Positions 3,961 through 58,647 of a DNA stretch of 60,976 bases are shown piece after piece. Both the position numbers and the translations under genes were made by a program. Source of the stretch: Girardia tigrina (taxonomy: Eukaryota); the NCBI GenBank assembly GCA_001938485.1, contig MQRK01243220.1:8430-69405 (forward strand). Reading direction: 5' to 3'. The notes under the pieces were generated by a model that saw only the letters and a list, made by a program, of their open reading frames with translations, was not told where the DNA came from and made no database searches. Positions within the stretch are counted from its first letter, which is position 1; every line of letters begins with the position of its first letter.

Positions 3961-4074
3961 TTTGTCGTATTCGTTGACTAGTATCCCGGTTGCAACTACC
4001 ACTAGTGGTCAATGTACTGAATTCTGTACTGAAGTTGTAAAGAAGAATGTTTTGAATATCTCTGGAAAAAGATA

Positions 4075-5393
4075 TATGGGCTGTTTAATAAGTTCCCGGA
4101 ATTGTTTAAAAAAACTGACTTCTATGAACAAATTCCAAACAATTCTATATTATATTTAAACTACATAATTTCCATGATTAATTACAAACTAGTTTGCAAT
4201 GTTCATACAATGATAACCATTCTTGACGAAACTTCTCTTCAGGGAGACCGCGGAGCACCTGCACCGCTCTTCCTTTCACCTCATCACCGTCCACGAATTT
4301 CTGCCCTCGAAATGAATGTTTCAGGTGCTTGAACACCCATCGATCACACTGATTCATGTCAGGGCTATATGGACTTTGTTTGATGATTGTCACTCCACGA
4401 TGATGAAAGAATTCCATTGTTTCTTTTGATGTGTGAGGGTGTGCGTTATCGTGTTGCCACAACAATTCCGTGAGCTTTTTGTGATGTCTGCAAACATGGC
4501 GCCATTTTTCCCCAGTTAAAAGAACAAATTCCACATAACGCTCTGCGTTAATAGTCTCTCCAGGAGAGCAAATGTCAGTACTTATCTTTTGATCACCAGT
4601 GAATGCCAGCAAGAGAAGAGTTTTCTTGTTTGTTAGCTTCGGGTGGACAACAGTGAGTTTTGGTTGTGTGGGATGACGCCATGTCTAATTCTGCTGTTTT
4701 GTCAGTGCTGTTTCATACAGAAACCAACTCTCATCCTCTGTTGCCCAATGGTGTAACAGATAATCGATGGAATGGTTTTTAAATAAGGTGATGACGCTTT
4801 GTGCACACAAAATCCTGTCCCGTTTGTTTGCTTCTGAGAGGTGATGTTTAATCCATGTCGAACAAATCTTTCGCAATTCCAGCTGATTTGTGAAAATCTG
4901 TCTAACAGTGTCTTTAGACAGGCCAGTCGATTCACTCACTGCTCTAAGAGATGTCCTTGGTTCTTCATCCACAATCGTTTTGATAATCTGCACATTTTCA
5001 GCAGTTGAAGATATGGTTGGGCGGCCGCATCTTGGATCATCACAAGGGATTGTCTTCCCTCTTTAAATCGTTTGTACCACTCGAATACAGTTGTCTGTGA
5101 AAGAACATCAAGGTTAGTATCTTGCAGCTGCTTATATATTTCACTTGGTTTACGTCACCGTAGCATTTCTAAGTAAATGTATGCACGAAAATGTTCTTTC
5201 TGTAAATCCATAACGTGTCAACGGTGCATCTTACACTGTGTTAGTAGCAATAATGGGCTGTCACAATGAGAAGAGAGTGGATAAGTGTGTGACTATATGA
5301 TTGGTGGCTTCATTTTAATACAATATTTACGTGTATACATGTATACATGTGTGTGTGCATGACATATTCCGGGAACTTATTAGACAGCCTAAG
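4075..5393 (-). mobile_element. Full-length mariner element, transposase pseudogene (D,D34D)
   Basis: TIRs GGCTGT(T/C)TAATAAGTTCCCGGAAT at both ends, flanked by TA; about 1.3 kb; ATG at 5211; motifs WATEDESW, WQHDNAHPH, YSPDMNQCD; internal stop and frameshifts. Confidence 0.92.
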
Positions 5394-13670: not shown

Positions 13671-16600
13671 AAAATATTTATTCAAAACTTATTGGATAAT
13701 AATTAAAATGATAATTAATTATTTAAAAATATTAATTTGATTTATTTATTAAATATTATAAAACTGAATTAACATATGTAAAATTTTAAAATTATATGAA
13801 ATTAAAAATAAATTTAAACATTACATATTTTTAGATAATAAGAATTAAAACATTAATCATCCATCTGGGTAGGAGAGACACATTTCCAAATCAACATACA
13901 CATTCAAACACAAAACATCAAACATTCAAATATTCCTCACAATATGATTTATGAATAATGTGTTTCGCGATCTCTTCAGTACAAAACTGGTGGTACATAC
14001 TATGTCTTATTTTTTTATGGAGGTCCTTCATTAATCAGTCAAAATTGATTAGAATAACATCTTTGGTCGTAATTATTTGTCATAAAAATATTTTTTTCAT
14101 GTAGATCGCGAATAAAAACTTTTAAGATGCTGTTTAGATAAAGTATAACATTTGCTAAATTTAAACTTTTAATTAAATAAAATTTTAAATTTTATATTTA
14201 TAAACTTTTTAAAGAACATTTAATTCCTTGTCTTATTTGTTGAACCAAACCTTCATCATAATATATTACTTACTGTAGAATGACACTCCTCTGAGTCTGG
14301 CCACACAAAATAATCATAACGACTGCGTGATGTACATTGAAGATTTTATCAGGAATGAGGTAATTTTGTTTGAATCATTTCAATATATAAACAATTTTTA
14401 GATTGTCCAATGCATAAGACGCGATGACGAGATCAAATTTGAAAAATTGTACCTAAAAAGCATTTCTAATACAGACAAAATTCATGTGAATTTTTATGTT
14501 ATTAATTTATTTGATAATTAATGATAATTTTTTATGAAAACATTTTTTTTTGTGTTTCATTATTATAATTACTTGTTAATTAATCAAATATTAATCAAAA
14601 AATGCCCGGATAGCTTGTAACATACGAAAAGTCTATTTTTAAAAACACAGTTGGCAGAATTTTACTTGGCCAACAAAACTTTTTTTAGTTTTTTAAAATA
14701 TTTTTAAAATTAAAATTCCTATAATTAAGTTATGTTTCCCTTTTGAAATTCTCCATATGATTTTCAATGGACCAGTGTATGTGTTAGAGTTTTCATGAAT
14801 AATTTTTTCTCATGTGAAAGTGATAGTTAAGCATTCGAATCATTTCAAGGGAAAGATTTTCAAACTTTTTATGTTTTTTATTGCATTTCTGTTTAATTTA
14901 AAGAAATTTTAATTAAAAAAATATTTACAAAAAAACAAAAAAAATTTTAAAAGTTTTGTTGGCCAAGCATAATTCTGCTCGCATAATGCATGGATATGGA
15001 AAAATGTTGAATAGCGAGAGCGGTTTGAATAATTGTTGTAATGACAATTCTGCTTGTGATGTTAATAAATGTTCAAAAAATCATATTGATGTTGTTATTT
15101 CTTTGTCTCGAGTTTCCTTCATTTGTTCATGTTTCTTTGTATTTGTTGTAATCGTTGCAGTCATGTATTTCTGTAATATGGCATCTTCAATTTTCAGGTC
15201 TCTCTTGAATTTAATTGTATTTCTTATGTGTTTTAATCGTTATCAATTCTATATTAAATTAAACGAATGCGAATTTAGATGAGGTCTGTATACTGATCTC
15301 TAGTAGTCCGTTTTAACAGCGAGTTGCTAGGTTATAATATTTTCTTAACTGAGTTCAAAAAAAGGTTAAACCGTCAATAGGATTTTGTTTAATAAATCTG
15401 ATATAATAAAATTATTAACGTTTGTATACTCAGTAATCAGATTCTAAAGCCAGGAGTGTAAATCTTAAAGTAACATTAGAATAGAATTTCCGACTGAATG
15501 GTTGCGAGACCTTTTGTTCATTTACTATTATTATTTGGATATCCATTGGATAAAGACTGTGAATACATGTTTGTGGCAAACCCAGTGACATTCGAGTATA
15601 CTGTATTCAATCAAATACTGTATAAATATTCTTAAACATATATTTGTATTAAATTGTATGATTGTTGTCATTATATTGCCATTAAATATGAATAAGTATG
15701 CAAAGTTTGAAAAAAATTATTGAATAAAAAGCCTTTAAAAATAGGTTTGTAAATTCACGATAAAAAAAACTATAATAATAAAAATTTTAAATTAAAATGG
15801 CTTTATTGTTTATTCAATCATATTAGAGTATTCTGAATCAGAATACTCGAATATGATTGGACAAACAATAAAGCCTCATGTAGGGGCTCCAATGCCGGGA
15901 TCTCAAATCTCTGGATGACATGATTGAAATCCTAGGAAATGCGGTCGGAATTCCGGGATTCAAAATTTATATAACTTTTTTCAAAAATTTAAATTATTCG
16001 ATTTTAAAGTGAATTAAAATAAAATCAACAATATTTCAAAAATAAGAACAAAGGAAGGAAGAGGAAAAACAGCATCAACCTTGTCCCCAACTTTGTATAT
16101 TATTTAGGTATCATTTTCTTCTAGTTTGTTTTTTTCTTTTATTCTTTGTCTTGTATCCTCTCGGTTTATTTTACTGGGGTCATACAACTGTAAAACGTCT
16201 ATTTTCTTGATAAATATAACTTCTACTAGATCACAACCGATCATCTTTTGCTTTTTTTTTGCATTTATTGCGAATTCCACTTCCGGTAGAATATCTGCCC
16301 AACTCGTGGAATTTCTTTCTTTCAAGGTTGCTTGGATGAATTCTCATATTGTCCTAAATTGTCTCTCAATTGACCCATTGTTGTTATGGTGTTAAAGATT
16401 TGAGCACATTAGTTTAATTTCTTTTGTTTCTAACATGTCTTTAACTTTTTTCGCTTCAAAGCATTTTCTCCAATATACGTGAATTTCTTTTGGTGCTCCA
16501 AACTTTAAAATCAATTTTGTAAAATTGTTTGTACTATCCTTTCTTCGTCTCTCATTTTAATTGTTTCAAACATACATATTTACTAAAGTGATCTATTATT

Positions 16601-31371: not shown

Positions 31372-34300
31372 TGTGAGGAATATCGGGTGTGTAATTGTTT
31401 TTTGTAGTGTTTGCATGTTTAAATGTTGTGTTGATTTTTTTGTGTGTTGATTTGGTATTGTGCCTCTCCTAATCAATTCTCCTAATGTTCAATATTTTAA
31501 TTCTTATAATATGAAACTAATTTATTTAAATTTAGATTTAATATTCAAATTTTTAATTTTTATTATTGCAACTTTTAAATAATTTTATTTGTTTTTATTT
31601 TTGTAAATTTTTAAATAATTAAAATCAAATTAATGTTTAAAAATGACTATTAAAATATTTTAGTGTAACAGTATGACAACTCAAGTTGATAAGAAACTAA
31701 ATGGTAAAACGGAGATATTAAAGATATCAAAGTTTAAGATAAATTGTAAAGAACTGAAAGGACGTCCAAGTGTGGATTTTTACGTGAAAGATAGGAAAGT
31801 TTATTGCCTTTTTGACACTGGAGCAAGAGTAAATGTAATGAAAAACATGAAAGATATTAAAATAAGAGAAACGAAAAAAACATATCCATTGCGCAAATGA
31901 TTCAGAACTGATCAATTAAGGAGTCGTCAAATTAAATGTGGCTATTGAGGGAACACAAAAGTTAATAGAGTTTTATGTGGTCAAAGAACTAGACCCGAAA
32001 TGATCGCAGGTATAGATTTCTTGGATAAATTCGGAATAAAACTGAAAAGACAGATACCTCGAGGTGGAGAAATATTGGTGATTAGAGACAACCCATCAGA
32101 TGAGGACAGACTAAGAAGAATAATGGATATATTTGACAAGCAAATTGACGGGCAATTAATGAAGATTCTAGCCAATTATAAATCAGTATTCATGGCTGAT
32201 AAGTGGGATATTGGGAAAACATCATTGACAAAACATAGAATAGAAACACACGGGGATCCAATACTAATAAAACCTTATCGGCAACCAAAACACTTTGAGG
32301 ACAAATTGGATGATGTTATTAAAAATTTCGAAGAAAATAATATAATCGAAAAGTGTAGCTCACCATGGAATTTCCCATTAGTATGCGTATGGAAGAAGGA
32401 AAAACAAGATATTCGAGTGTGTGTAGACTTCCGCTAGCTGAAAAGAATTAACGTCAGGCCAGCGTTTCCTATGCCAAATGTAGATGACATGCTGAACACA
32501 CTGAATGGTGCGCAATATTTTAGTACAATTGATCTTCGAAACGTATACTACCAAGTCGAGTTGGAAAAAGAATCAAAGATTAAAACAGCATTCTCAACAA
32601 AGAACGGACAGTATTGTTTCAAAAGAATGCCATTCGGGATAGCAGAAGAGGCAGCAAATTTCCAAGAGCTAATGGTCAAAGTCCTTGAAGATTTACACTT
32701 GAAAGAGACAGTAGTATATTTGGACGATATTTTGGTTTTTGCAAAAAATAAAGAAGAGCATATGCAACAAATAAAACATGAACTGGAAAAAATTAAGGAA
32801 GCAGGTTTAAGAATTAACCCAGAAAAGTGCCAATTTTTAAGAGAAAGAACAAAATTTTTAGGATATATTGTCAGTAAGAATGGTATAGAAACTGATCAAA
32901 CAAAGATTGGTGCCATTAAAAAATTTCAGAACCCATCATATATCAAACATTTGAGAAGTTTCTTGGGTCTAACAAATTACTACAGAAAATTTTTAAAAGA
33001 TTACGATGTGAGGAATGTTTTGAATTGTGTATTGATATTGTGCATGTAGAATGTTGATTCGGATTGTGCCTCTCCTACACAGATGGATGATTGATATTTT
33101 CTTTGATTCTTACTAATTAAAAATAATTTAATTTAATTTTAAAGTAAAAAGATTTAAAATAATTTTGAATGTATTATTTTTTTTTTAATGTAATTTAATT
33201 TTAACCAATTAGATTCTTTATAATTTAATAATTTTTATTAACAGAGTTTCATTTATTGAAAATAATTAGTTTGAACTCAAAAAAAATTGATCAAGAGAGA
33301 TGTCAGATAGTGAATGCGCTTGTAATATTAATAAATGTTGTAAACCTCATATTGATGTTGTTAATATACGCAAAATACTCAAAAGTATTGAAGAGTTTGT
33401 GTGGTAAGAATAAAGACAAGAAAATAATATGGACTGAAGAATACGAGGAAGCTTTTAGAAAATTGAAAGAAAAAATGATTGACACCCCGATACTGGCGTA
33501 TCCTGATTTTCAGAAGGAGTTTATACTGGATACAGATGCAAGCTTCGATACAATCGGGGCAGTATTATCACAGAAGGACACGTATGGTAGAGAGAGAATG
33601 ATCACGTATGGATCACATAAAATGAACAAACTTGAGCTTGGATATTGTGTTACGAGAATAGAGTTGCTAGAAATTTATTATTTTACGCTAAATTTTAAAC
33701 ACTTCTTATACGGTAAAAGATTTTTACTAAGAACTGATCATAAAGCTATTACCTTCATGTTGAATACGAAAAACCCAATAACACAACAATTTCAAACGTG
33801 GATAGATTTTCTTAGTAGTTTAAATATGAGAATGGAATATCGGAAAGGAGGAAACCACTAGAATGCAGATGCAATGTCGAGAAATTCTTGTGAATTGTGT
33901 AATCAGTGTCAAACAATGCAAACAATGTAAAGAACAAAGAAATGGTTACTGAAGGACAATATTGTGACAACAATAGATAACAAATATTGGATTCCGAGAA
34001 CCGGGCAGAATTCGTTGAAGACGCTCACAAGATGCTGTGCCATGTCGGTAGTAAAAAGGTTTATAAATATTTGAAAGATTATTTTGATATGGTTAATATG
34101 AGAGAGATAATTAAGGAAATTGTAAAATGTTGCATAAACTGTCAAAAAAGAAAGACTTTAACCACAAAAACGAAAGAAAGTTTTATTAAACAATTTGCTG
34201 GTGAACCATTTAAAAAGTTGTATATGGATTTTTGTGGACCATTTAAAAGGACTTTAAATGGATATCAATATATATTAGCTATAATCGATCAATTTAGCAG

Positions 34301-35405
34301 GTATATAAGTCTGAATGCTTTAATTCATCAAGATGAGAAAACTGCTCGGAAGGTACTACTGGACAGATGGATTTGGAAATTCGGACTACCAAAAGAGATC
34401 CATGTGGATAGAAGTAAAGCATTCGAATCGACACTCTTCAAAGACACAATGAAGTTATTTAAAGGATAAATAATTTACTCCGATCCTTATCATCACAATA
34501 TCAATGGCATCATTGAAAGACAATTTAGAACAATTAGAGATGCTATGAACATAAGGATAAAAGACCAAGCCCACAAAGATTGGACGGAAATATTGCCAGA
34601 AGTAGAATTTATGATGAAAAGCACAATTCAAGCTACCACATGAATCTCACCAGCAGAAATGATATTTGGTAGGAAGCTAAGACATTGGTGGAAAGATACT
34701 AAGAAACATAGTTTTAATAAGAAGGAAAAGAGCGAAAATACGATAGAAACAAAAGGAATATTTCATACGGGGGATAAAGTGTTGATAAAAAAAGAAAATG
34801 CTACAAAGGAAGAAGATCGATATATGGCCCCAGCCACAGTAAAAAGTAGTAGACATGAATGAAGTTATGAATTGGAGCTAGAAGATGGTAGATTTTTGAT
34901 TATAAATGTGGAATGGCTAAAGCCATTTAAATCGAGGGGGATGTGAGGAATATTTGATATGTGGAGGTTTTTGTATAGTGTTTGCATGTTTAAATGTTGT
35001 GTGTTGATTTGGGATTGTGCCTCTCCTAATCAGATGGGTGATCATTATTTTAATTCTTATATTCTGAAACTAATTTATTTAAATTTAGATTTAATTTTCA
35101 AATTTTTAATTTTTATTATTGTAACTTTTAAATAATTTTATTGATTTTATTTTTGTAAATTTTTAAATAATTAAAATCAAATTAATGTTTAAAATTGACT
35201 ATAAAAATATTTTATTTCAGCCAATAAAATTTAAATTAACTATTCTTAAATAAAATAATTTTCTCAAGTTTAGTTTAGACTATAATGAGAGATATTGAAA
35301 ATTGAGTGATGGACTTAAAAGAAATCAATAATATTGATTATCATAAAGATGATAGGAAATGTGAATGTAATATATGTTCTGTCAAATGTGTGACTTCTCT
35401 TAACA
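31372..35405 (+). mobile_element. Ty3/gypsy provirus, family A, gag deleted
   Basis: Truncated 5' LTR; PR (LFDTGA), RT (YLDD), RNase H (DTDAS), IN (YMDFCGP); PPT GAGGGGGA; 3' LTR 34942-35405; TSD ACTTC/ACTCC. Confidence 0.92.
33007..33366 (+). mobile_element. Solo LTR inserted in RT
   Basis: TGTGAGG...GTTGTTAATA; TSD TACGA/TACGC; RT reading frame resumes after it. Confidence 0.85.
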
Positions 35406-35559
35406 ACTCCAACTGGTATATGTTCCTGTGACGTATATTTTAAATTTGGTATATTAAAATAAGTATGTTGAATTTTGTATGTTGAGTTTCGTATTTGGAA
35501 ATGTGTTTCTCCCACCCTGATCGCAAATTGGTATTTTAGATGTTCACGAGCATAATTTG

Positions 35560-38065
35560 TGTGAGGAATATTTTGAATGTTTGATGTTTTTTGTCTGAAT
35601 GTTGTATGTTGATTTGGAATTGTGTATCTCCTACCCAGATGGATGATTAATATTTGAATTCTAATTATCTAAAAATATGTAATGTTTAAATTCATTTCTA
35701 ATTTAAAATAATTGTAAAATTTTAAATAAGTGAATTAATTTTTACGATTTTTATATATAAATCGAATTAATATTTTTTTAATTGATCATTTTCTAGTAAT
35801 CATTTTAGTTTTTATCTAATAAGTTTTGAGTAAATATTTAAATAAATTATTTATTTTCTGCATTTGCTAAAAATAATAGGAATTAATTCATTTGATAGAT
35901 GATGATGATGTACAAAAACAAATAGCCATTCAAGGTATCACGAAATCTGATGAGATTAAAGAAATACAAACGAGAATTTTTGAACACGATAAAAAGAAAC
36001 GAAACGCACCAGTGGCAGCATATAACACAAAAAGAGAAAATGAATGGAAAACAGTGAAAAATAAAAGGAGAACAGCAAAACCGCGGAATGGAGAAATGCC
36101 AGAAGATACTAGAAGAAATTTAAAGTCAGGAAAATTACTTGTTGGGCATGTCATGAAGAAGGATATATTAGAAGAGAGTGTCAAAATGTGAAGTGTAGTC
36201 ATTTTAATAAAAAAAGGCATTTAAGAACACAGTGTTATGAAAACCCTAATATGTTTATGGAGCGTGATAAATGGAAAAGGAATAATTGAAGAAATTGATG
36301 GGAAAATGATAGGGAAAACTACTCGAATCAAAGATATGGAAACTGGACGACATACATAAATAGGAAATATCCAGTAGCGGAATTGGACGAACTAGATGAT
36401 GAATTGTATAGAAGAGATGACTCTTCAAGACGGGGCTATACAGACGAAATTGATAGAAAAAAAGATTCTAAAAGACAAAAAAATATCCTAGAGTTTACAG
36501 AAAATTCAGAGATGATCATGGTAACAAGGATGTACGATCACAGGGAGAAGTGATCAGTGTGCTCCATGAGTGTTAGGAATGTTTTGAATTGTGTGTAGAT
36601 ATTGTGCATGTTGTATGTTGATTCGGATTGTGCCTCTCCTGCACAGATGGATGATTGATATTTTCATTGTTTCTTACTAATTAAAAATAATTTTATTTTA
36701 TTTTAAAGTTAAAAGATTTAAAATAATTTTTGAATGTATTATATTATTTTTGAATGTAATTTTTTAATGTAATTTTAATATATTAATTTTTAAGACACTT
36801 TGAAGAAACCGATATTATCGAAACATGTAGTTCTCCTTGGAACTTTTCTTTAGTATGTGTTTGGAAAAAAAGCAAGATATTCGAGTATGTGTAGATTTTC
36901 GTTAGTTAAATAAAATAACCGTCCGACCAGCTTTTCCAATGCAAAATGTAGACGACATTTTGAAAACACTAAATGAACAAAACACTTTAGTACTATCGAT
37001 TTGGAAAACGCTTACCATCAAGTAGAATTAGAAGATGAGTTAAAGATTAAGACGGCATTCTCAACAAAGCACGGTCAATACTGTTTCAAGAGAATGCCTT
37101 TTGGAATTACTGCGGCCCCAGCAACTTTTCAGGAGCTAATGGTGAAAGTTTTTGGAGATCTGAATTAGAAAGAGGTAATCGTATATTTGGATGATATTTG
37201 ATTTTCGCAAAAGATAAGAAAGAACATCTTCAAAGAGTAAATGACGTATTTGAGAAGATTAAACAATCAAGTTTGAGAATAAATCCAGAGAAATGTCAAT
37301 TTTTAGTAGAAAAGACTAAATTCTTAGGATATAACATAAGTCAAGATGGTATCGAAACAGATAAATCAAAGATTGACGCGATAAGCAAGTTTCAAAGCTC
37401 ATCATGCATTAAACATTTACGGAGCTTTTTGGGCTTGACGAATTACTACTGAAAATTTATAAAGGATTACGCAAGATATGAAAAAGTATTGGAAGGTTTA
37501 TGTGGTAAAATAAGGATAAGAAACTGATTTGGACTAAAGAATGCGATGAAACCTTTCAAAAACTAAAGGACAGAATGATTAAAGCTCCAGTTTTGGCATA
37601 TCCTGATTTTGCCAAAGACTTCATATTTCATACAGATGCAAGTTTTGATACGATAGGGGCGATGTTATCACAGAAAGACAAATGTGGAAGAGAAAGGGTG
37701 ATTGCGTATGGATCACATAAAATGAATAAACATGAACTAGGCTTTTACATTACAAGGAAAGAACTACTTGCAATTTATTACTTCACAAAGCATTTTAAAC
37801 ATTTCTTGTATGGAAAAAGATTTTTGTGGCGAACAGATCATAAAGCTATTACGTTTATGATGACTACAAAGAACCCTATCATACCACAGTTCAAAACATG
37901 GATAAATTTTCTGAGTAGTCTTGAGATGAAAATTGAATATCGAAAAGGCGAAAAACATTCAAATGCTGATATAATATCAAGAAATTCATGCTACTTGTGC
38001 AATCAGTGTCAAAAAATACATGAAGAGATAAAGAAGGGAAAGATTAAAACATGAATACTGGCAAT
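35560..38065 (+). mobile_element. Rearranged gypsy fragments (LTR pieces, gag, RT, RNase H) related to family A
   Basis: LTR starts near 35560 and 36571; gag similar to 40600-41050; RT/RH at 36790-38054. Confidence 0.85.
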
Positions 38066-38068
38066 AAG

Positions 38069-38905
38069 TTATTCCGAAGATTATTCCGAAACCGAGAGTG
38101 TCAATGGGGACATTGTTTCCGGGAAATCAAAATTCAATTAATTTTCTTTTAATCAAATCAATCTCTTTTCGACTAATTAATTCGATTCGATTAATTGCTG
38201 TAGCAATTCTTTCAGGACGAGTGCGTTGAAGAAACAGATTATGATGAAGCACAGCGACGATTCCTTGAATAATGTTCCCTTGACCTGTGAGACGGTTGAG
38301 ACCGGTCCTTTTTTGAGAAAGACACTGAGCTTTAATATGAAATCGAATAAACACAAAACGAAGAAATATATCTCATCTTCCTCTGAGATACAACATCTAC
38401 ACTAAAATCGTAATCAATTTGCACACCGGAGCCTGTGGCTGTAACGGTTTTACCAGTCTCATAATACCAAATTTAATGGTTTGTAATTTGCCTGTAACAG
38501 TTTTTTATTCTTGATGTATTTTAGTCTTTTTACCTTTAGTGTCACATGTGTCTAATTTTCAATATGTTGAATACTTTTATTTGTTTCAGAAGGTCGAATC
38601 AGACGAAATGGAATTACATAGTGACTTTTCGGTATCTGATGAATTACATAGTGATGAAACTGGATATATTAATAAATTTCCGTTATCTAAGGAATCGTTG
38701 GAGTTGGTGGACCTGAAGACATTTGAGGAAAAAGAGTTATTGGTTTGTTTTTTTTTGTTTTTAAAGAATATCGCGTGAACAAATAAAATTTACCTCCATA
38801 TCTTTTTTTAATACTATACCATCTTAATAACCTTGGAAATAACCAGAAACACTTCAGAAATAGTCCATAATAACAGAGTTAGTTTTGGAGCAGCGTAGTA
38901 GTTAT
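38069..38905 (+). repeat. Host exon-fragment cassette, copy 1
   Basis: Near-identical to 44950-45630 and 60205-60861; includes AG/GT-bounded 153-nt exon 38590-38742 (KVESDEMELHSD..EKELL). Confidence 0.85.
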
Positions 38906-38959
38906 GCATAGATATAATATAAATATAATGATATACAAAACAAAAAATTACAACATAAA

Positions 38960-39420
38960 AGAGTTTTTCTTAGTACACACATATTTTTCAATATTTTCGT
39001 TATTAAAATATTTTCATTTCTGTAATATAGAATTAAGTATTGAGAAACTGCGTTCAACGCTAGCTGAAGTGGGTTGACATTTCATTAAAAGTTTATAAAT
39101 TGAGGGACTGAGGTTAGGGTTCGACATCGTTTATTGCTAAAATATAATTTTTTTAAAGTCTTGCTTCCACATATTCTTTAATTTTGCATTCATCCTCTTC
39201 AAAATTATGATCTATAAGCATTCTTAATGTTGCTTCGATTGCGTATTGACTTGCTCTCATTTTAATTGAGAAAAATGACAAATTCTTCTATTAAGAGGTG
39301 ATGTTATATAAATGTTTTTCAACAGTATAAGATTCTAATGCTTTTTTAGCTTCAAGTACAAAAATTTCTTTTTTTATTTGATAAAATAATATAATTTAAG
39401 ATTTTTTTATCATTTAACTA
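38960..39420 (-). mobile_element. hAT C-terminal fragment, same family as 58672-59737
   Basis: KCQPTSASVERSFSILNSIL (hAT dimerisation motif); matches 59320-59490. Confidence 0.8.
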
Positions 39421-39745
39421 TGAAGTATTAAATTATATAAAAATGTTTTTTTCTGAGAAACGTCGAAAGAGAAACGATCGGATGAGAATCGACCTGTCCC
39501 TGTCGTAGTGGACCTAATACTACCATGGACCTAATACAATCGAGGGATATTACATCGTATATTTATTCCAACCGCCCTATAAAGCGACAAAATCTACATA
39601 TGAGTAGTGTCTTTTTAAAAATGGAGCAGCAGGACACATGACTGCAAAATATGTTTGTACGGGCTTTAGAAAGGCTAATTACAATCTATTCTAGATAGAA
39701 GTATATATCACCGTCGACTACAGATATAATAAATTACTTCCCCAT

Positions 39746-42700
39746 TGTGAGGAATATTTGGTGTGTGGATGTTTTTGTGTAGTGTTTGCATGTTTAAATG
39801 TTGTATGTTGATTTTGGATTGTGCCTCTCCTAATCAGATGGATTGTCAATATTTAATTTCTTATATTCTGAAACTAATTTATTTAAATTTAGATTTAATT
39901 TTCAAATTTTTGATTTTTATTATTGTAACTTTTAAATAATTTTATTGATTTTATGTTTGTACATTTTTATATAATTAAAATCAAATTAATGTTTAAAAAT
40001 CACTATAAAAATATTTTATTTCTGCCAATAAAAATTAAATCAAATATTTTTAAATAAAATAATCTTCTCAAGTATAGTTCAGGTTATAATGACGGATATT
40101 GAAAATTGATTGATTGATCTTAGTGAAAGCAATAATATTGATCACCATAAAGATGATAAGAATTGTGAATGTAATAAATGTTCTGTCAAATGTGTGAGTT
40201 CTCTTAACATGGCGACTTCACACCACGTGACTCCGAACATCAAAAGTCCAGAAACATTCAATGGATCCGAGCACAAAGTAGAGGAATTCCTGATAAATAT
40301 TAACAGGTATTCAAAGATTATGGATAACAGAAAAAAACAAAGATTATTATAACAGATGAGAGAAAAATCCAACTGGTAACATGACTCCAGATGCGTTTCT
40401 GAGATACGAGAAGGCCCCAGGGAGTACTTGCGAAGAGAAAATGTGAGCAGCATTTTCAAAAGAGAAATCAATTTTTGATTTGATGAAAGATCTCATACAG
40501 TTAAGAGTAGGTTGCGGTGACCCGTCACTTGCGTTCCAAAAAGCAGATGAGATAATCGAAAAATTAATGGAGAAAAAGTTTGGTAAGAAAGAACTATCAA
40601 ACTTGGTCTATGCTGATATGATTGACGATGATAATGTCGATCAAGAGATAGCGATTCGAGGTGTGACAAAGGCAGAGGAGATCGAAAACATACAAATGAG
40701 GATGTATGAATACGGGAAAAAGAAAAGAAATTAACCGATTGCAGCATATTACACAAGAAAAGAAAACGATTGGAAAACTGTGGAGAATAAAAGAATAACA
40801 CCAAAACCACGGAACGACGAAGTAAAGAGAGACGGTACAAGTCGAAATTATAAAGTCAGAAAAATAATTTGTTGGGCATGTCATGAGGAAGGTCATGTTA
40901 GAAGAAAATGTCCGAACGTTAGGTGTAGCCACTGTCAAGGAAGAGGACACCTACGAACACATTGTTATGAAAACCCAAATAGGTTTAAAGATCGTGACCA
41001 ACGGAAATGGGACAATAATAGAAATCGTATGAATGACAGGAGAGATTATTTTAATCAGAGATATAGAGAAATATTCCTCAAGAGATGTGCGAACTTGAAT
41101 GAGTAGATATTGTAAATCGAGAACAGTGTAATAGTATGACAAGTCAAGATGGAAAGAAACTAAATGGTAAAACGGAAATATTGAAGATATCAAAGTTTAA
41201 GATAAATTATAATGAACTGAAAGGACGTCCATGTGTGGATTTTTACGTGAAAGATAGGAAAGTTCATTGCCTTTTGGATACTGGAGCAAGATTAAATGTA
41301 ATTAAAGCGCAGATAATTAAAACATGAAAGATATTAAAATAAGAGAAACGAAAAAAACGTATCCATTTCGCAAATGATTCAGAACTAATCAATTATGGAA
41401 TCGTTCAATTAAATGTGACTATTGAGGGCACACAAAAGTTAATAGAATTTTATGTGATTAAAGAACTAGACCCCGATATGATCGCAGGTATAGATTTCTT
41501 GGATAAATTCGGAATAAAACTGAAAAGACAGATACCTCGAGGTGGAGAAATATTGGTGATTAGAGACAACCCATCAGATGAGGACAGACTAAGAAGAATA
41601 ATGNNNNNNNNNNNNNNNNNNNNNNNNNNNNNNNNNNNNNNNNNNNTAGCAAATTATAAATCAGTATTCATGGCTGATAAGTGGGATATTGGGAAAACAT
41701 CATTGACAAAACACAGAATAGAAACACACGGGGATCCAATACTAGTAAAACCTTATCGGCAACCAAAACATTTTGAGGACAAATTGGATGATGTTATTAA
41801 AAATTTCGAAGAAAATGACATAATCGAAAAGTGTAGTTCATCATGAAATTTCCCATTAGTATGTGTGTGGAAGAAGGAAAAACAAGATATTCGAGTGTGT
41901 GTAGACTTCCGCCAGTTGAATAGAATTACCGTCAGGCCCGCATTCTCTATGTAAAATGTAGATGATATACTGAACACACTGAATGGTGCGCAATATTTTA
42001 GTACAATTGATCTTCGAAACGTGTACTACCAAGTCGAATTGGAAGAAGAATCAAAGATTGAAACAGCATTCTCAACAAAGACCGGGCAGTATTGTTTCTT
42101 CGTTATAGCAGAAGAGCCAGCAAATTGCCAAGAGCTAATGGTCAAAGTCTTTGAAGATTTAAACTGGAATGAAACAGTAGTAAATTTGGACGATATTTTT
42201 GTTTTTACAGAAAATAAAGAAGATCATATGCAACAAATAAAACATGTACTGGAAAAAATTAAGAATGCAGGTTTAAGAATTAACCCAGAAAAGTGCCAAT
42301 TTTTAACAGAAAGAACTAAATTTTTAGGATATATTGTCAGTAAGAATGGTATAGAAACTGATCAAACAAAGATTGATTCCATTAATAAATTTCAGAAGCC
42401 ATCATTTACATTTGAGAAGTTTCTTGGGTCTAACAAATTACTACAGAAAATTCTAAAAGATTACGCAAAATATTCAAAAGTATTAGAGGGTTTATGTGGT
42501 ACGAATAAGGACAAGAAAATAATATAGACTGAAGACTGCGATGAAGCTTTTCGAAAATTGAAAGAAAAAATGATCGACACCCCGATTCTGGCGTATGCAG
42601 ATTTTGAGAAGGAGTTTATACTGGATACAGAAGCAAGCTTCGATACAATCGGGGCAGTATTATCACAGAAGGACACGTATGGTAGAGAGAGAGTGATCGC

Positions 42701-44613
42701 GTATGGATCACATAAAATGAACAAACACGAGCTTGGATATTGTGTTACGAGAAAAGAATTACTGGCAATTTATTATTTTACGCAAAATTTTAAACACTTC
42801 TTATACTGTAAAATATTTTTACTAAGAACTGACCATAAAGCTATTACCTTCATGTTGAATACGAAAAACCCAATCACACCGTTATTTCAAACGTGAATAA
42901 ATTTTCTAAGTAGTTTGGATAGGAGAATGGAATATCGGAAAGGAGGAAAGCACTCAAATTCAGATGCAATGTCGAGAAATTCTTGTGAATTATGTAGTCA
43001 GTGTCAAGCAATGCACGAAGAGGCTAACAAAGAAAAGATCAAAACACGAATCTTGGATTTAGATGAAGAATCAAAAGAGTTCAAATGGCAAAATTATAAT
43101 GACGAAATAAATCAGATCAGAGAAGATATTAGAAAGGGCAGAACGAAGAAATGGATACTGAAAGACAATATTATGACAATAATAGATAACAAATATTGGA
43201 TTCCGAGAACCACAGGGCAGAATTCGTTGAAGACGCTCACAAGATGCTGTGCCATGCTGGTAGTAAAAAGGTTTATAACTATTTGAAAGATGATTTTGAT
43301 ATGGTTAATATGAGAGAGATAATTAAGGAAATTGTAAAATGTTGCATAAACTGTCAAAAAAGAAAGACTTTAACCACAAAAACGAAAGAAAGTTTTATTA
43401 AACAATTTGCTGGTGAACCATTTAAAAAGTTGTATATGGATTTTTGTGGACCATTTAAAAGGACTTTAAATGGATATCAATATATATTAGCTATAATCGA
43501 TCAATTTAGCAGGTATATAAGTCTGAATGCTTTAATTCATCAAGATGAGAAAACTGCTCGGAAGGTACTACTGGACAGATGGATTTGGAAATTCGGACTA
43601 CCAAAAGAGATCCATGTGGATAGAAGTAAAGCATTCGAATCGACACTCTTCAAAGACACAATGAAGTTATTTAAAGGATAAATAATTTACTCCGATCCTT
43701 ATCATCACAATATCAATGGCATCATTGAAAGACTATTTAGAACTATTAGGGATGCTATGAACATAAAGATAAAAGATCAAGCCCACAAAGATTGGACGGA
43801 AATTTTGCCAGAAGTAGAATCTATGATGAAAAGCACAATTCAAGCTACCACAGGTATCTCACCAGCGGAAAGGATATTTGGTAGGAAGCTAAGACATTGG
43901 TGGAAAGATACTAAGAAACAGAGTTGTAATAAGAAAGAAAAGATCGAAAATACGATAAAGACAAAAGGAATATTTCATACGGGTGATAAAGTGTTGATAA
44001 AAAAAATGCTACAAAGGAAGAAGACCGATATATGGGTCCAGCCACAGAAAAAAGCAGTAGACCTGAATGAAGTTATGAATTAGAGCTAGAAGAATGTAGA
44101 ATTTTGATCAGAAATGTGGAATGGCTAAAGCCATTTAAATCGAGGGGGATGTGAGGAATATTTGGTGTGTGGATGTTTTTGTGTAGTTTTTGCATGTTCA
44201 AATGTTGTATGTTGATTTTGGATTGTGCCTCTCCTAATCAGATGGATTGTCAATATTTAATTTCTTATATTCTGAAACTAATTTATTTAAATTTAGATTT
44301 AATTTTCAAATTTTTAATTTTTATTATTGTAACTTTTAAATAATTTTATTGATTTTATTTTTGTAAATTTTTAAATAATTAAAATCAAATTAATGTTTAA
44401 AAATGACTATAAAAATATTTTATTTCAACCAATAAAATTTAAATTAAATATTTTTTAATAAAATAATTTTCTCAAGTATAGTTCAGATTATAATGGGAGA
44501 TATTGAAAATTGATTGATGGATCTTAGTGAAAGCAATAATATAGATCACAATAAATATGATAAAAATTGTGAATGTAATAAATGTTCTGTCAAATGTGTG
44601 AGTTCTCTTCACA
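39746..44613 (+). mobile_element. Complete but degenerate Ty3/gypsy provirus, family A
   Basis: 464-bp LTRs 39746-40209 and 44150-44613; TSD CCCAT/TCCAT; PBS TGGCGAC; PPT; gag with two CCHC knuckles (CWACHEEGHVRRKC, CSHCQGRGHLRTHC); PR-RT-RH-IN order; many stops. Confidence 0.95.
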
Positions 44614-44689
44614 TCCATAAAATTCATTGCGCCAGTGATGGACCCTCGAGTGGAGGAGCTGGAAGTCAAGTCTGACAAAAAAGTTGTGA

Positions 44690-45630
44690 CCTTTTTAAAT
44701 TATTGTGTAATCTGGTTTATTTTAGTAAATGTTTGACAATGCTTTTAAAAAATTGTTTTTCTATTTTAATAAATAAATATTAATTTTTTTTTCAATGTTG
44801 TTATTTCCAATTTTCGTGAAATCCTTTTTATTTTATTCAAATTTGATATTTTAGAAAAACATATTAAAATACTTCTCCATTTTTTCATTATTTACTTGGT
44901 TTCTACACTGAATTCTTAATCGAGTTTCACACCGGAGCCTGTGGCTGTACGAGTGCGTTGAAGAAACAGATTATGATGAAGCACAGCGACGATTCCTTGA
45001 ATAATGTTCCCTTGACCTGTGAGACGGTTGAGACCGGTCCTTTTTTGAGAAAGACACTGAACTTTAATATGAAATCGAATAAACACAAAACGAAGAAATA
45101 TATCTCATCTTCCTCTGAGATACAACATCTACACTAAAATCGTAATCAATTTGCACACCGGAGCCTGTGGCTGTAACGGTTTTACCAGTCTCAATACCAA
45201 ATTTAATGGTTTGTAATTTTGCCTGTAACAGTTTTTTATTCTTGATGTATTTTAGTCTTTTTACCTTTAGTTTCACATGTGTCTAATTTTCAATATGTTG
45301 AATACTTTTATTTGTTTCAGAAGGTCGAATCAGACGAAATGGAATTACATAGTGACTTTTCGGCATCTGATGAATTACATAGTGATGAAACTGGATATAT
45401 TAATAAATTTCCGTTATCTAAGGAATCGTTGGAGTTGGTGGACCTGAAGACATTTGAGGAAAAAGAGTTATTGGTTTGTTTTTTTTGTTTTTAAAGAATA
45501 TCGCGTGAACAAATAAAATTTACCTCCAAATCTTTTTTTAATACTATACCATCTTAATAACCTTGGAAATAATCAGAATCACTTCAGAAACAGTCCTTAA
45601 TAACAGAATGAGTTTCACAGCGGTGTAGTA
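44690..45630 (+). repeat. Host exon-fragment cassette, copy 2
   Basis: Aligns with 59945-60861; acidic exon at 45321-45473. Confidence 0.85.
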
Positions 45631-47039
45631 GCGGTACAGTGGCATTGGTGGAGATTCTACGGTTAGGGTTTAGAAAGTCTTACCGAAGAAAATGATTTGA
45701 CATATCTTTCCAATTTCTGATTGATATCCAAAATTTGCGAAGATTATCTCCATACTCTGTGTTCATTTTAATATCGTCCCAATATAGCATCAATTTTATG
45801 ATGAGTTAGTTAAAATTTTCAATTCGTCAAAAAAATTAATAATTTTTTTAAATTTGAATGTTTTAAAAAATTAAAAATTTACAAAAGGTTTTAAAAGTAA
45901 AAATGATCTCAAAAGGAAAACAAAAAAATAAAATAGTTATATAAAACAAAAAAAATGTTTACATTCGTAAAAATGCATATATTTTCATAAATGTTTTGAA
46001 ATAAGAATTTTAAAATAAATAATCAACGGATTAAAATTTATAATATTTTCGATATAGTTTTTTAAAATAAAATGTTAAATTTTATAATTTTATGATAAAA
46101 TTTTTTTAAAACATTTTTAACTATAATTTAAAAAAACTAAAATGACACTATTTAAAAACATATTTGAAACGATGATATATTTTGACGGTTTTATTGTCAT
46201 ATTCACATTATGACTTTTAGCTTATTTATTGTTTATATATAGGAAATTGATGAGTATGCAATCTAACAATCAAACTCTAAAAATATGGATGACAGTGATG
46301 TTTGAATCATTAATTTTAGGGTAACGAGACCTTATTAACAACGCTTAACACAACACTTGTTCCAAATAATTTTTAAAATGCTTGCACAGAAATCCATACA
46401 CAGACTCGATACCCTGTAGAATGATGTTTTAATGTTGATTCTCCTGACGAGGCTTAAATAAACCTTGCTATATCGCAGCTGATTAATGAGAAAGCACCTG
46501 GGTCGAATGGAGTGATTGCTGAAGTTCTGAGGTGGGGTGGGCAACCAATCACTGACAAACTGAGGCTTGATTTTGAACTGATATGTAACGGTGTTCATGA
46601 ATTTCCACCGGCTTGGAGGAGTTCTAAAGTGGTGACACTATTCAAACAAGATCCGACCCGAACAACTACAGGGGTATCTTTCTCTTAGAAGTTACTGGTA
46701 AGGTTTTTGTGCGAATCATCGTAAATACAATCCTACCGGTGATGTAAGAACGACTGGATCCCTGACAATTTTGTTTTAGACCGAAAAGGGACACGTTTCA
46801 GGCTATTAGTATACTCAGGCGTATTAAGAACACCAATGTGGGTTTTCGAATATTTGAATTTTTTCGAATATTTTCAATACAATTTGAATTGTCCCTTTAA
46901 CAACTCTCAGTTAAGCTTTCTGAATTTGACATCGTTCTAAATTGAAAAAAAAATTTTTATTTTTGTTTTTTAATAAACTAAAATAATAAAATAATATACT
47001 AAAATAATAATAAATAAAATTATTCGAACAAAGAAAGAA

Positions 47040-50000
47040 AATTATATGAACGAACAATTTTATCAAATATGTAACTTAGAAGCCAAATTTGGACGTAAGG
47101 TTACAAACGAGTAAAGATTCAAAAGAGCCATGGAAATTATGAAAATTGCAGATGTGAGGGATAATTGTGAATGTTGTAAGTTTGTTGTTTTTATGCTGTT
47201 TAGATTTGTGACTCTCCTACTCAGATGGGATTGATATGTTATTTGATTAATTATTTTAATCTAATGAAANNNNNNNNNNNNNNNNNNNNNNNNNNNNNNN
47301 NNNNNNNNNNNNNNNNNNNAAATTAAAGTACTAATTAATTAAAGTTTGATAATTGTGAATTTTAATAATATTTTCAGTAAACGATTTTAACTTATTAAAT
47401 TTAATATTTTTAAAAATTAATGTTTATTTTAAAAATTAGATAATATATTTTTATCTAATAAAATTTATGAGAAATTAAAATGTAATATTAATATTTCCCC
47501 ATTCATTATTTTTTTCATATTTAAATATTTAATCAAAAACTATATTAATCAAAGAAAGATGACCACTGAAAATTGTTGTGAAGAATCTGTTTGTGTTGTA
47601 AATAAATGTTTGCATTCAAATTGTGATGTTGTTAATAGCAGATAAGCCAAAGATTGTGGATATTGTTAAAAAAACATCAAGGAGTTTTTATGGCGGATAA
47701 ATTGGATATCTGATGTACGACGATGATTAAACATAGAATAGACACGAAAGGACCTCCAATTAACATTAGACCACATAGGCAACCAGTTAATCTTGAAGAA
47801 AAGATCGATGAGACTATTAAGAATTTGTGGGAAAGCAACATTATTAAGAAATGTAATTCGCTATGGAATACACCGATAATTTGTGTATGGAAGAAAGAAA
47901 AGAATGATGTTAGAATTTGCTTGGATTTTAGACAGCTAAACCTAGTCACGGAGGGACAGGCATTTCCTATGCCAAATATGATAGAAATGATGGACAGACT
48001 GTATGGAGCCAGATATTTCACATCAATTGATTTAGGCAATGCATACTACTAGGTCGAACTAGAGGAAGATTCAAAGCTAAAAACAGCATTTTCCTCAAAG
48101 CTTGGACAATTTTGTTTCAATAGAATGCCGTTTGGTATTGCAGCGGCACCGAGAACGGTATTGGATCAAATCGGAAAAGCAGGCTTAAGAATTAATCCGG
48201 AAAAGTGTCATATCTTAAAAACAGAAGTTAAATTTTTGGGACATGTAATTAATGATAAAGGTATACAGACGAACCCATCTAAAGATGAGCCATAAAGACA
48301 TTTGAAAAACCGAAATATGTAAAGAATCTAAGAAGTTTCCTTGGAATTTGCAATTATTAAAGACGATTTATTAATGACTACGCAACAAAGGCAACATTAG
48401 AACAACTGTGTGGATTGAACAAGAAGAAATTTTTATGGACAGACGCATGTGATGTAGCATTTGCAGAGATGAAAGAGGCTTGAAAAACACCACCGATTCT
48501 AGGATTCCCAGACTTCAAGAAAGAATTTATACTGGACACTGATGCCAGTTCGACACAATTGGAGCAGTATTATTCCAAAGAGACAAGGACGGACGTGAGA
48601 GAGTTATTACATATGGTTCACACTCCATGAATAATCATGAAAAAAGATACTGCATTACGAGGAAGGAGCTGTTGGCAATGTATTACTTCTGTCAACATTT
48701 TAATCCGTATTTATACTGGATGTGATTCACTTTGAGAATGGATCAAAAGACAATTACGTTTATGGTTAAAACAAAAAAACCGATAACGGCGCAATTTCAG
48801 ACATGGATTAATTATTTATCAAGTCTTGACATACACTTAGAATACAGAAAAGGAACAGATCATTCCAACGCAGATATGCTGTCTCGAAATACATATGATA
48901 CATGTATACAATGCTTGATGGCTCATGAAGATGCTAAAATGATGAAGATAAAGACTCGAAGAATCAACATTCTGGACACATCGCAGATATTCAAATATCA
49001 ACAAGAAGAAATAGAAGAAATTGAAAGAGACACAAGTTCAGGTAAAGACAGAAAGCTTACGATTGAAGACGGCATAATAAGAACAAACATGGGGAAGATT
49101 TGGATACCAAAATCAAAACGAGAAGAAATGATCATAAAAATACATATATTATTGTCGCACGCGGGTGTAGAGAAAGTAATGAAATATATCTCTGAAAATT
49201 ATGACATGATCAATCGGAATGAAATAATAAAAGAAGTAATTGGACAATGTGAAGCATGCCAAAAAAGTAAAACATTAACGACCGCTATGAAGGAAAAATG
49301 GGTGACATTGGTCGCAAATGAACCATTTGAGAAAGTGTACATAGACATATGTGGACCACTAAAGGAGACTTGGAGAAGAAAAAAGTATATTGTTGCAATC
49401 ATAGATCAGTTTAGTAGGTACATATCTTTGACAGCCATTAACAAGCAGGATGAAATAGCCATAAAAGACATCATAATGACCAAATGGATATTGAGATTTG
49501 GAGCGCCGATGGAAATACATACAGATTGTGGGAAGACATTCGAATCGAAAGTAATCAAAGACATGGCAGAATCAATGAATATAAAAATGTGTTACTCGAG
49601 TCCGTACCATCATAACACGAATGGAATAGTAGAAAGACAATTTCGGACGATTAGAGAATACTTAAACGCATCGTTACATACAAAGAAAAGATCAGACTGG
49701 GAGGAACTACTACCGGAAATAGAATTCACATTAAACGCAACTTTTCAGAAAACAATAGGGAAAGGCCCAGCAGAAATTATATTCGGTAAGAAAATATACA
49801 GAGAAAGATGACATAGTTAAGACATAAAGGTACAGCAAGAAAAAGAAGACACAACAACCAGAAGAAATTTCGAAATTGGAGATGAAGTACTAGTCAAGGT
49901 GGAAACGGGGATAAAGAGTAAAGATAAATATGAAGGANNNNNNNNNNNNNNNNNNNNNNNNNNNNNNNNNNNNNNNNNNNNNNNNNNNNNNNNNNNNNNN

Positions 50001-56914: not shown

Positions 56915-58430
56915 TACAAAATAGTATAAAAAAGAAAATTCGCACTTTGAATGAAGAGTCAGAGGGTTTCAAATGGCAAAAGAATAATGAAGAAATTAAA
57001 TAAATAATAAAGGAAATCAGAAAAAGGAAAACGAGTTAATGGACACTAAAAATGATATCGCGGCAACTCCGGACAATAAATACTGGATCCCAAAAATAGA
57101 ACGAACAGATTCTATTGAAGAGATGCACAAACTATTATTCCATGCTGGCAGTAAATATGCCTATAACTATCTACGAGAAAATTTCGACATGGAAAATATG
57201 AAAAATTTCATTAAAAAAAGTCCAAAGTTGTTTCAATTGTCAAAAAAGAAAGACATTAACAGCAAAAACGAAAGAAAAGCATGTAAAGTTATCGGCAGAT
57301 GAACCTTTCCAGTAAATATATATGGACATCTGTGAACCATTCAAAAGAAACATAAACGGATATCAATACGTACTTGCAATAGTAGACCGATTCAGTAGAT
57401 ATATTAGCATGAATGTAGTTGCTAATCAAGGTTGAAAAACAGTGCATAGAATAATAGTGGACAGATGGATATAGAAATTTGAACCTGCAAAAGAAATCCA
57501 TGTTGATAGAGGAAAAAATTTTGAATCGGCTTTGTTCAAAGATACAGTTAAAAGGTTCAAAGTCGAGATAATCTATTCAAGTCCATATCATCATAATACA
57601 AATGGGATAGTGGAAAGACAATTTCGAACAATCAGAGATGCTATAAATATTAGAATGAAGGACGGAAACCACAGAGATTGTACAGAAGTTTTGTCGGAAA
57701 TAGAATTTATGTTGAATAGTACAGTTAAAGCTACGATAGGTTTTTCAACGGCTGAAATTATATTTCGGAGATGATTGAGACATTGGTGGAAGAACAATAA
57801 AGAAACTAACGAAAACCAAGTTAATGGCGGACAAATGTAGAGAGAAGAAGAGTTTTTGAAGTTGGAGACAGATTATGGATAAGAAAAGAAAATATATTAA
57901 AAGAAGATGACCGTTACATGGGTCCGGCAATTGTGTTGAAAATAAATCGCGAAAGAAGTTTCGAGTTACAGCTCAAAGATTGTAGAACTTTGATTAGAAA
58001 TGTTTTGAATTGTTTGTTGTTTTATATTTTCCATGTTGTACGTTAATTCGGATTGTGTCTCTCCTACCCAGATGGATGATTGGTATTTTCTCTGATTCCT
58101 AATAATTGAAAATATTTTAATTTAAATTTAAAGTATAATTATTTAAATATTTTTTTAAATGTAATATTTAAATTTTTGAACGTAATGTTTTTATTTTTTT
58201 GTAATTTGAAATTTTAATATATTAATTTAATTGATATTTTTTTTAAATTTGAAAATTTGATTTTAATCAATTAGAAATTTGATAATTAATTAATAATATA
58301 AATATTTTCCATTGTTTTCAAAAATTAGAATGAAACTCAGAAATATAATAATCAACAAAAATGTTAAATAGTTGACGTAGTTTGAATAATTGTTGTAATG
58401 ACAATTCGATTTGGGAAATCAATAAATGTT
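56915..58430 (+). mobile_element. Gypsy integrase fragment plus LTR
   Basis: YSSPYHHNTNGIVERQFRTIRD; LTR motif CTCTCCTACCCAGATGG near 58060. Confidence 0.85.
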
Positions 58431-58647
58431 CGGCTTCCCATACTGCATCTCCATTTCTGTGACCGCCGGCACCGTTCAAGAAGGTGAATGATTCGCTCGA
58501 TTCGTCGACACGCACTTCTGAAGTGTAGTGGGTGCGGTCGAAAGAATCTACCATGCATCGCCAAATTATTTGAGGCGATGGCGCAAGTGATCCTACCGAT
58601 TTAGCCCGCTGTCGAGCAGTGTAGTGCGAGTTATTATATATTCGAAC
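58430..58647 (-). pseudogene. Orphan GC-richer host-like exon fragment
   Basis: ttctcAG|VRIYNNSHYTARQRAKSVGSLAPSPQIIWRCMVDSFDRTHYTSEVRVDESSESFTFLNGAGGHRNGDAVWEAEH; truncated by an LTR. Confidence 0.5.

Follow-up and report, generated by a model that had tools for sequence, protein, structure and literature searches.

The layout in which a gag frame opens ahead of the primer-binding site (PBS) is known from Ty1 of Saccharomyces cerevisiae, where GAG starts upstream of the PBS, the PBS lies inside the open reading frame (ORF), and a 10-nucleotide (nt) core PBS is complemented by extra tRNA pairing, as described in PMC4974528 and PMC5454406. The models of long terminal repeats (LTRs) of animal Metaviridae (Mag, CsRN1, Sushi and rGmr1) given in PMC3601003 share TG..YNYAACA ends and AATAAA with a GT-rich stretch, and in that paper's account of the motifs they are not described as protein-coding. 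Here, we examine a 60,976-nt stretch of Girardia tigrina DNA (assembly GCA_001938485.1, contig MQRK01243220.1, positions 8,430 to 69,405 of the forward strand; hereafter, the window). The host genome is AT-rich and 1.43 Gb in size, and this region forms a nest of pieces from gypsy-type retrotransposons, including a family-A provirus. In the tRNA-Arg-primed gypsy-type lineage to which the provirus belongs, Gag probably starts at an ATG within the LTR, as judged from sequence comparison, so that its N-terminus would be LTR-encoded lineage-wide.

As in Ty1, the PBS of these elements is short in its core and lies inside the gag ORF. Unlike Ty1, they are of the gypsy type, are primed by tRNA-Arg(ACG), and have a zero spacer between LTR and PBS, which makes a second in-frame ATG at the junction; moreover, the ORF even includes the poly(A) signal in the window's clade, and the leader (the LTR-encoded part of the frame) varies from 3 to 38 residues across the lineage. 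The tRNA-iMet primer and the order of integrase before reverse transcriptase (RT) that characterize Ty1 (Pseudoviridae) are not found in the provirus family, where the Pfam order RVT_1, RT_RNaseH_2, Integrase_H2C2 and rve is that of Ty3/gypsy (Metaviridae). Several families here end in TA, in contrast to the shared LTR ends of PMC3601003. The elements here have a tRNA-Arg primer, a 5-bp duplication and two to four CCHC knuckles; in Mag elements, paired CCHC knuckles are a trait. RT homologues yielded matches without clade names, and the elements are not assigned to Mag here. The Culex Mag elements treated in PMC3286476 use Leu or Ser primers, with one Arg. In the open-access literature that was searched, we found no description of an ATG at the LTR/PBS junction, of an LTR-encoded Cys-rich gag leader, or of a Gag PIP box (a motif that binds PCNA, the proliferating cell nuclear antigen); the layout itself being known from Ty1, it is the gypsy-lineage case that was found undescribed there.

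The leader frame and its conservation

An earlier note on the window, made from its letters alone, had described a frame (40089-40209) that stays open over 40 codons and continues into gag. This frame is interrupted by a TGA at its codon 7, and the same TGA occurs in 28 of the 29 junction rows obtained for the closest copies (28 of 30 loci), the remaining row being out of register. The family-A leader starts two codons past this TGA, at 40113, and comprises 32 codons; an alternative genetic code for the TGA is unneeded, since the start lies downstream. The start codon is absent from the window's 5' LTR but present in its 3' LTR and in the second family-A LTR (Table 1).

A total of 153 distinct junction copies were collected, and 118 of them were sorted into 13 related families, each seeded by a natural copy. 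All 13 seeds are ATG-started and open into the junction, with leaders of 22-32 codons, whereas shuffled leaders would be open by chance with a frequency of 0.03-0.20 per family. The leader ATG is carried by 28/33 copies in family A, 20/28 in B, 21/25 in C, 13/15 in D, and by all 21 family-E ends. Leader lengths (96 nt in eight families, then 84, 78, 78, 75 and 66 nt) are all multiples of 3, as are the distances from AATAAA to the junction (36, 42 or 27 nt). Frame continuity, which the earlier note had proposed to examine in the U5 ORF, is thus kept family-wide, with in-frame length differences only. More distant families (24 copies in 10 lineages), in which AATAAA lies upstream of the first ATG, served as a control: there, AATAAA is off-frame in 18/24 copies, which means that its phase is free outside the ORF. 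The first ATG after AATAAA is in frame in 7/8 of the distant lineages that have one (p = 0.003), and two further lineages have none; in one distant copy, the first ATG runs into a stop, after which a second in-frame ATG leads on.

The composition of the leader points the same way. T is found at a frequency of 0.62 at third codon positions versus 0.24 and 0.20 at the other two, while U3 is without phase (0.42/0.41/0.40), and in 12/13 families third-position T exceeds that of shuffles forced to be stop-free (p < 0.02). In public assemblies, unbroken ORFs of 370-388 codons run from the LTR ATG through Gag. Public protein relatives gave 63 matches of 330-460 residues; 46 of these have the junction motif N/MAT (the slash marks the LTR end), and 39 of the 46 have an M-started leader of 3-38 residues, versus at most 0.34 expected by chance. 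Taken together, these observations suggest that the leader is conserved in register with gag and most likely translated.

Selection on the peptide sequence itself appears slight. Within families A-D (95/101 copies kept for the leader and 73/96 for gag), the leader omega (dN/dS) is 0.68 for variants shared by at least two copies versus 0.69 for singletons, and somewhat lower, 0.56, for variants in at least three copies; in gag, it is 0.26 for shared variants versus 0.68 for singletons (Fisher p = 0.037). Between families with alignable gag, uncorrected pN/pS is ~0.7-0.85 in the leader versus 0.4-0.55 in gag, and among nine full-length family-A proteins, 20/279 leader positions versus 11/1395 positions of the capsid domain are variable, a ninefold faster change. 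The dN/dS comparison suggested by the earlier note therefore reveals no residue-level constraint: the leader matches neutrality. Judging from the in-frame indels, the third-position T and the dN/dS values, it is the start, the frame and a polar composition, rather than particular residues, that selection appears to maintain. An AlphaFold model of an unbroken public relative has residues 1-40 unstructured (pLDDT ~50) and a capsid-like fold at residues 45-201 (~95), and a Pfam scan of the leader and the start of Gag gave no match. The tail is predicted to be disordered. Foldseek searches with the Gag model gave the capsids of dArc1, copia, Ty3, dArc2 and PNMA2 as best matches (E 0.015-0.14, probability 0.92-1.0, none with E <= 0.001). 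Unlike the Ty3, dArc and copia capsids, the domain here would be preceded by a disordered, LTR-encoded tail of ~40 residues.

The primer and the junction ATG

As the earlier note had it, the last LTR base and the first PBS bases form an ATG in the gag frame (40209-40211), and the PBS is coding. Searches of the genome with junction patterns returned 1313 and 1702 matches versus 39 and 0 for the controls. The primer is tRNA-Arg(ACG), as the match to host tRNAs proposed in that note has now revealed: tandem tRNA-Arg(ACG) genes are present in the genome, and some LTR copies continue into the tRNA complement instead of gag, often halting after 18 nt or with base 19 misread. Both outcomes would be expected if plus-strand synthesis copied the primer tRNA as far as m1A58. 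These copies fix the LTR end and show that the spacer is zero, so that xA/TGG must spell ATG: where a PBS beginning with TGG, the complement of the tRNA CCA, abuts an LTR ending in A, the ATG is unavoidable. It is the obligate outcome of a zero-spacer junction, and no translational explanation is needed. In gag-linked copies of the window's clade, exact PBS pairing extends over 7-11 nt, and families with longer pairing translate as M-A-T-T-P-G.

The LTR copies with an antisense tRNA-Arg(ACG) end number in the dozens (L206-L215, L216-L283 and L319-L359), many of them stopping at 18 nt or having base 19 changed; one, L210, copies the whole tRNA plus CCA with a G at the wobble position, as inosine would read, although a genomic GCG variant also exists. 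Such copies preserve, as fossils, past captures of strong-stop DNA along with traces of tRNA modifications. In the gag-linked family-A copies L200, L222, L223, L226 and L228, the PBS has been replaced by tRNA-type sequence and the gag frame is shifted, which suggests why a degenerate, frame-preserving PBS persists.

With its frame open from the LTR ATG through U5 and the PBS, Gag likely begins with a short tail, predicted to be disordered. RNA signals lie within this leader and likely dictate much of its sequence: its final codons are the integrase inverted repeat and M-A-T-T-P-G the tRNA complement. With a start ahead of the PBS, the ribosome that meets a tRNA-occupied PBS would be an elongating one rather than a scanning one.

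Start codons, cysteines and solo LTRs

Several observations weigh against an LTR-encoded start. The leader ATG is absent from 15-29% of the B, C and A copies; three stops are common to several leader copies (gag shows three too); 7/46 public relatives start at the junction M, and the public protein starts are in any case gene-caller predictions. The families are related, so their counts are not independent, and the family-A leader ATG has a T at -3 and is preceded by a short upstream ORF. Assembled contigs from four of the 11 listed sequencing runs (three only guessed to be RNA) revealed neither transcription start sites (TSSs) nor poly(A) ends; the element is present in them, and all the depth over the leader start corresponds to the start-codon-bearing form. 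Captured strong-stop DNA gave no clear 5' edge: among 37 LTR+tRNA copies, 18 are full LTRs, 11 end inside U3, five end at edges and three end near the ATG (two of these at N gaps), and in a further set of 82 junctions the edges are scattered. About 12 of the 59 non-edge truncations lie within 35 nt before the ATG, which is a hint only, given that at least seven of the 59 are reference artefacts and that ascertainment is uneven.

From the absence of purifying selection at the amino-acid level in the window's families, it could be argued that transcription starts downstream of the leader ATG (a short R), that the junction ATG is the sole start and that the open frame is a T-rich accident. This is highly improbable: leader length changes only in frame, the ATG is retained, the third-position T bias exceeds stop avoidance, the phase of AATAAA is free exactly where AATAAA lies outside the ORF, and in one branch a PIP-like motif is kept as protein across otherwise unrelated leaders (see below). 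The proposal in the earlier note that both ATGs are used, giving a long and a short Gag, finds weak support and is doubtful. Leaky scanning past a cap-near ATG, or reinitiation after the short upstream ORF, would be helped by the good context of the junction ATG (A at -3, G at +4 in 13/13 seeds) and by a TCAA-like motif preceding the leader ATG by ~10-20 nt, which resembles the initiator (Inr) described for animal Metaviridae LTRs (PMC3601003) and as such would imply a very short 5' untranslated region, compatible with leaky use. No upstream ATG exists in the 7/46 public relatives and in two of the 10 distant lineages, and ATGs between the two starts are few in the distant lineages. On the other side, two to five out-of-frame ATGs, one of which is AAATGT itself, intervene in 10/13 seeds, including all of the window's families, so leaky scanning would mostly be intercepted and the junction ATG poorly reached; moreover, replication needs alone fix this ATG. 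With Gag starting in the LTR, the junction ATG is likely an internal methionine.

The earlier note had also attributed to the leaders a shared C..NKC motif with palmitoylation or metal-binding cysteines. The motif is real, corresponding at the DNA level to TGT-N6-AATAAA-TGT, but the cysteines are probably incidental, a by-product of the RNA-ending signal. According to PMC3601003, AATAAA, a downstream GT-rich stretch and a YNYAACA end are conserved in the LTRs of animal Metaviridae; in the leader frame these read NK, C/V and L/V-N, so the poly(A) signal and its TGT/GTT-rich context explain the motif. In 13/24 distant copies, too, a TGT stands 6-12 nt ahead of AATAAA, there outside the leader ORF and untranslated, and nearly all the Cys codons are TGT. 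A function in the window's clade, whether palmitoylation for membrane targeting or a metal or disulfide site, is distinctly unlikely: the 2-6 Cys per leader in this clade and the omega of variants in at least three copies speak for it, as does the Cys three codons before NK, which is kept in 10/13 seeds and in all five close public proteins (P0010-P0014) and which a protein role could explain too, but 31 of the 39 leaders of public relatives are Cys-free, two or more Cys occur in five proteins only (all of the window's clade), the Cys after NK is replaced by N, S or H in three of the five unbroken close proteins, spacing and number vary, and the leader omega is neutral. Finally, solo LTRs had been proposed to act as portable promoters plus N-terminal tags. 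In the window, two solo LTRs do keep the register: their open frames, 22 and 26 codons long from an ATG, end one base before the LTR end, and the remnant at 15004 translates as the note stated. Leader frames do enter the flanks, and contigs labelled as RNA extend past LTR ends into a variety of flanks, though DNA is possible in those runs. A tag role is unsupported, however, and chimeric host proteins made in this way are very unlikely: the frames reach a stop after 2-20 codons of flank at the four complete LTR ends of the window, after 1-51 codons at 20 further ends of family E and after 60 codons at the 15004 remnant, as in random AT-rich DNA; no fusion to a host ORF was found; and such transcripts could be terminated at the poly(A) signal that the leader contains.

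Table 1. Retrotransposon features of the window (window coordinates)
Feature	Position	Strand	Remarks
Family-E LTR end, 5'-truncated	15000..15097	+	begins ~5 nt before leader ATG 15004
Solo LTR, family B	33007..33366	+	TG..TA; leader 33300-33365 (22 codons); 13 codons into flank
Second family-A LTR	34942..35405	+	leader ATG 35309; frame extends 8 codons into flank
Provirus	39746-44613	+	LTRs 441/464 identical
5' LTR, family A	39746..40209	+	464 bp, TG..CA ends; target duplication CCCAT/TCCAT
Leader frame, 32 codons, gag register	40113..40208	+	start codon absent in this copy; preceded by in-frame stop 40107-40109
AATAAA, likely poly(A) signal	40173..40178	+	reads as NK of the motif; 36 nt upstream of junction ATG
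Junction ATG	40209..40211	+	final LTR base + PBS bases 1-2
gag	40209..41106	+	capsid-like domain, two CCHC knuckles; this copy broken by frameshifts and stops
PBS, tRNA-Arg(ACG)	40210..40230	+	7 nt exact, then degenerate extension; encodes A-T-S-H-H-V
pol remnants	41250..44083	+	protease, RT, RNase H, integrase in that order
3' LTR	44150..44613	+	leader ATG 44517; frame extends 20 codons into flank
Solo LTR, family C	47153..47637	+	TG..TA; leader 47559-47636 (26 codons); 2 codons into flank
Family-E-like LTR	57996..58431	+	leader ATG near 58361; truncated after poly(A) signal

The provirus has the paired LTRs, PBS, polypurine tract and target duplication of Ty3/gypsy elements, the 5-bp duplication containing one mismatch. 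It has no env; integrase extends to the polypurine tract (44143-44149). A protease DTG motif near 41275 was read from the sequence, the adjacent scanned stretch giving no Pfam match. The Gag capsid fold and CCHC knuckles are as in Ty3/gypsy, the structural E-values being weak. Both solo LTRs are flanked by 5-bp target duplications and are nested in the pol of related elements of the same lineage (32171-33006 plus 33367-33861, and the 47154 region). LTRs end in TG..TA in families B, C, D and F, where TA in place of CA leaves the translated leader unaltered and the 5-bp target duplications are clean.

Other features of these elements include a CACGTG palindrome (40224-40229) that follows the PBS core across the clade (CATGTG, G-U pairable, in B and C) and is a candidate dimerisation signal, and a block 50-100 nt into the LTR (39790-39845 and equivalents), conserved between families with otherwise unalignable U3, which is a candidate enhancer. 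The upstream ORF common in family A has six codons (40089-40109) and stops two codons ahead of where the leader begins; family B has a polymorphic counterpart. Such ORFs could tune initiation if transcribed. The Gag C-termini of P0010-P0017 end in a conserved E-V-I-x-V-L-[HNQ], which resembles the leader end and might be a protease or frameshift site. A protease cut at V-L-N/M-A-T would fit this similarity, but the inverted terminal repeat explains the codons. Elsewhere in the window, putative pieces of Mariner-like transposase and of RTE/LINE-like RT and a short element with inverted repeats, the last adjoining the 15004 remnant, were labelled by their motifs (3236-5062, 17359-19568 and 14654-14978).

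A PIP-box-like motif in a sister branch

LINE-1 ORF2p and the Pogo/Tigger transposases bind PCNA via Qxx[ILM]xxF[FY] (PMC5371812), and the account given there names no PIP box for LTR elements. A pattern of this kind, Q-x-x-I-T-[DE]-[FYH]-[FI], occurs near the start of otherwise unlike leaders in P0015-P0017, public proteins that are nearest to the window's clade, and in family H of the same genome. It has three matches in 696 leader residues and none in 16,558 other residues, and 0/20,000 shuffles reach three, for a pattern chosen after being seen and present in one branch only. The PIP consensus (Q-x-x-aliphatic-x-x-aromatic-aromatic, in a disordered region) is exact in P0015 and P0017, with one departure each in P0016 (Ile at position 8) and family H (His at position 7). 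PMC6881253 gives this consensus and defines the PIP degron by TD at positions 5-6 and K/R at +4: TD and the +4 lysine occur together in family H only, P0015 and P0017 having TD without the basic residue. The motif falls within the 337-nt LTR in all four of the family-H copies. The DNA context of P0015-P0017 was not found in the metagenome (36 loci, four with junctions, none PIP-bearing) or in viral contigs, and an LTR location of their motif would follow from the N/MAT junction. In the window's families A, B, C and E (P0010-P0014 leaders and window translations), there is no match to the PIP consensus.

A structural model with Dugesia japonica PCNA as a stand-in places leader residues 1-13 in the PIP pocket with a score of 0.85, versus 0.04 for the best of three controls; contacts agree at >=56% and the partner pLDDT is >=53, a mark reached by 51/78 solved and 2/108 mismatched pairs but not calibrated on peptides. 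Such a pass can likely come from likeness to solved PIP complexes. The PCNA of the genome is closest to that of D. japonica (69%), followed by other flatworms; there are several PCNA loci (C216443, C231292, C173220 and C202509), one clearly diverged and possibly a paralogue. Whereas the PIP boxes of LINE-1 and Pogo sit in the enzyme, the motif here would be N-terminal in the capsid protein of an LTR retrotransposon, and that of family H is LTR-encoded.

Conservation of the motif as protein is the best single sign that the leader is translated in these elements. A tentative reading, possible though somewhat less than even, is that the LTR acts in addition as an exon that supplies Gag with an exchangeable N-terminal module, in which one branch evolved a PCNA-binding PIP box (with the full PIP degron in family H); this would be the first LTR-retrotransposon capsid to dock on the replication clamp, and it might steer particles or intasomes to the S-phase chromatin of dividing stem cells or time the destruction of Gag by CRL4-Cdt2. 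The tail would be free to pick up short linear motifs, as the sister branch suggests.

An LTR-encoded Gag start would mean that an entire lineage of animal gypsy elements translates R-U5, its poly(A) signal, its integrase end and its primer site into protein. The recurrent N/MAT(T)P motif would be explained as translated tRNA complement, and the true N-terminus would be lost from annotations in which gag begins downstream of the PBS. Such a leader would offer a natural experiment on how linear motifs arise in a disordered tail under RNA-signal constraint. Should the PIP box prove functional, LTR retrotransposition would be coupled directly to the replication clamp, as LINE-1 and DNA transposons are already known to be, and the solo LTRs of the PIP branch could shed PIP peptides.

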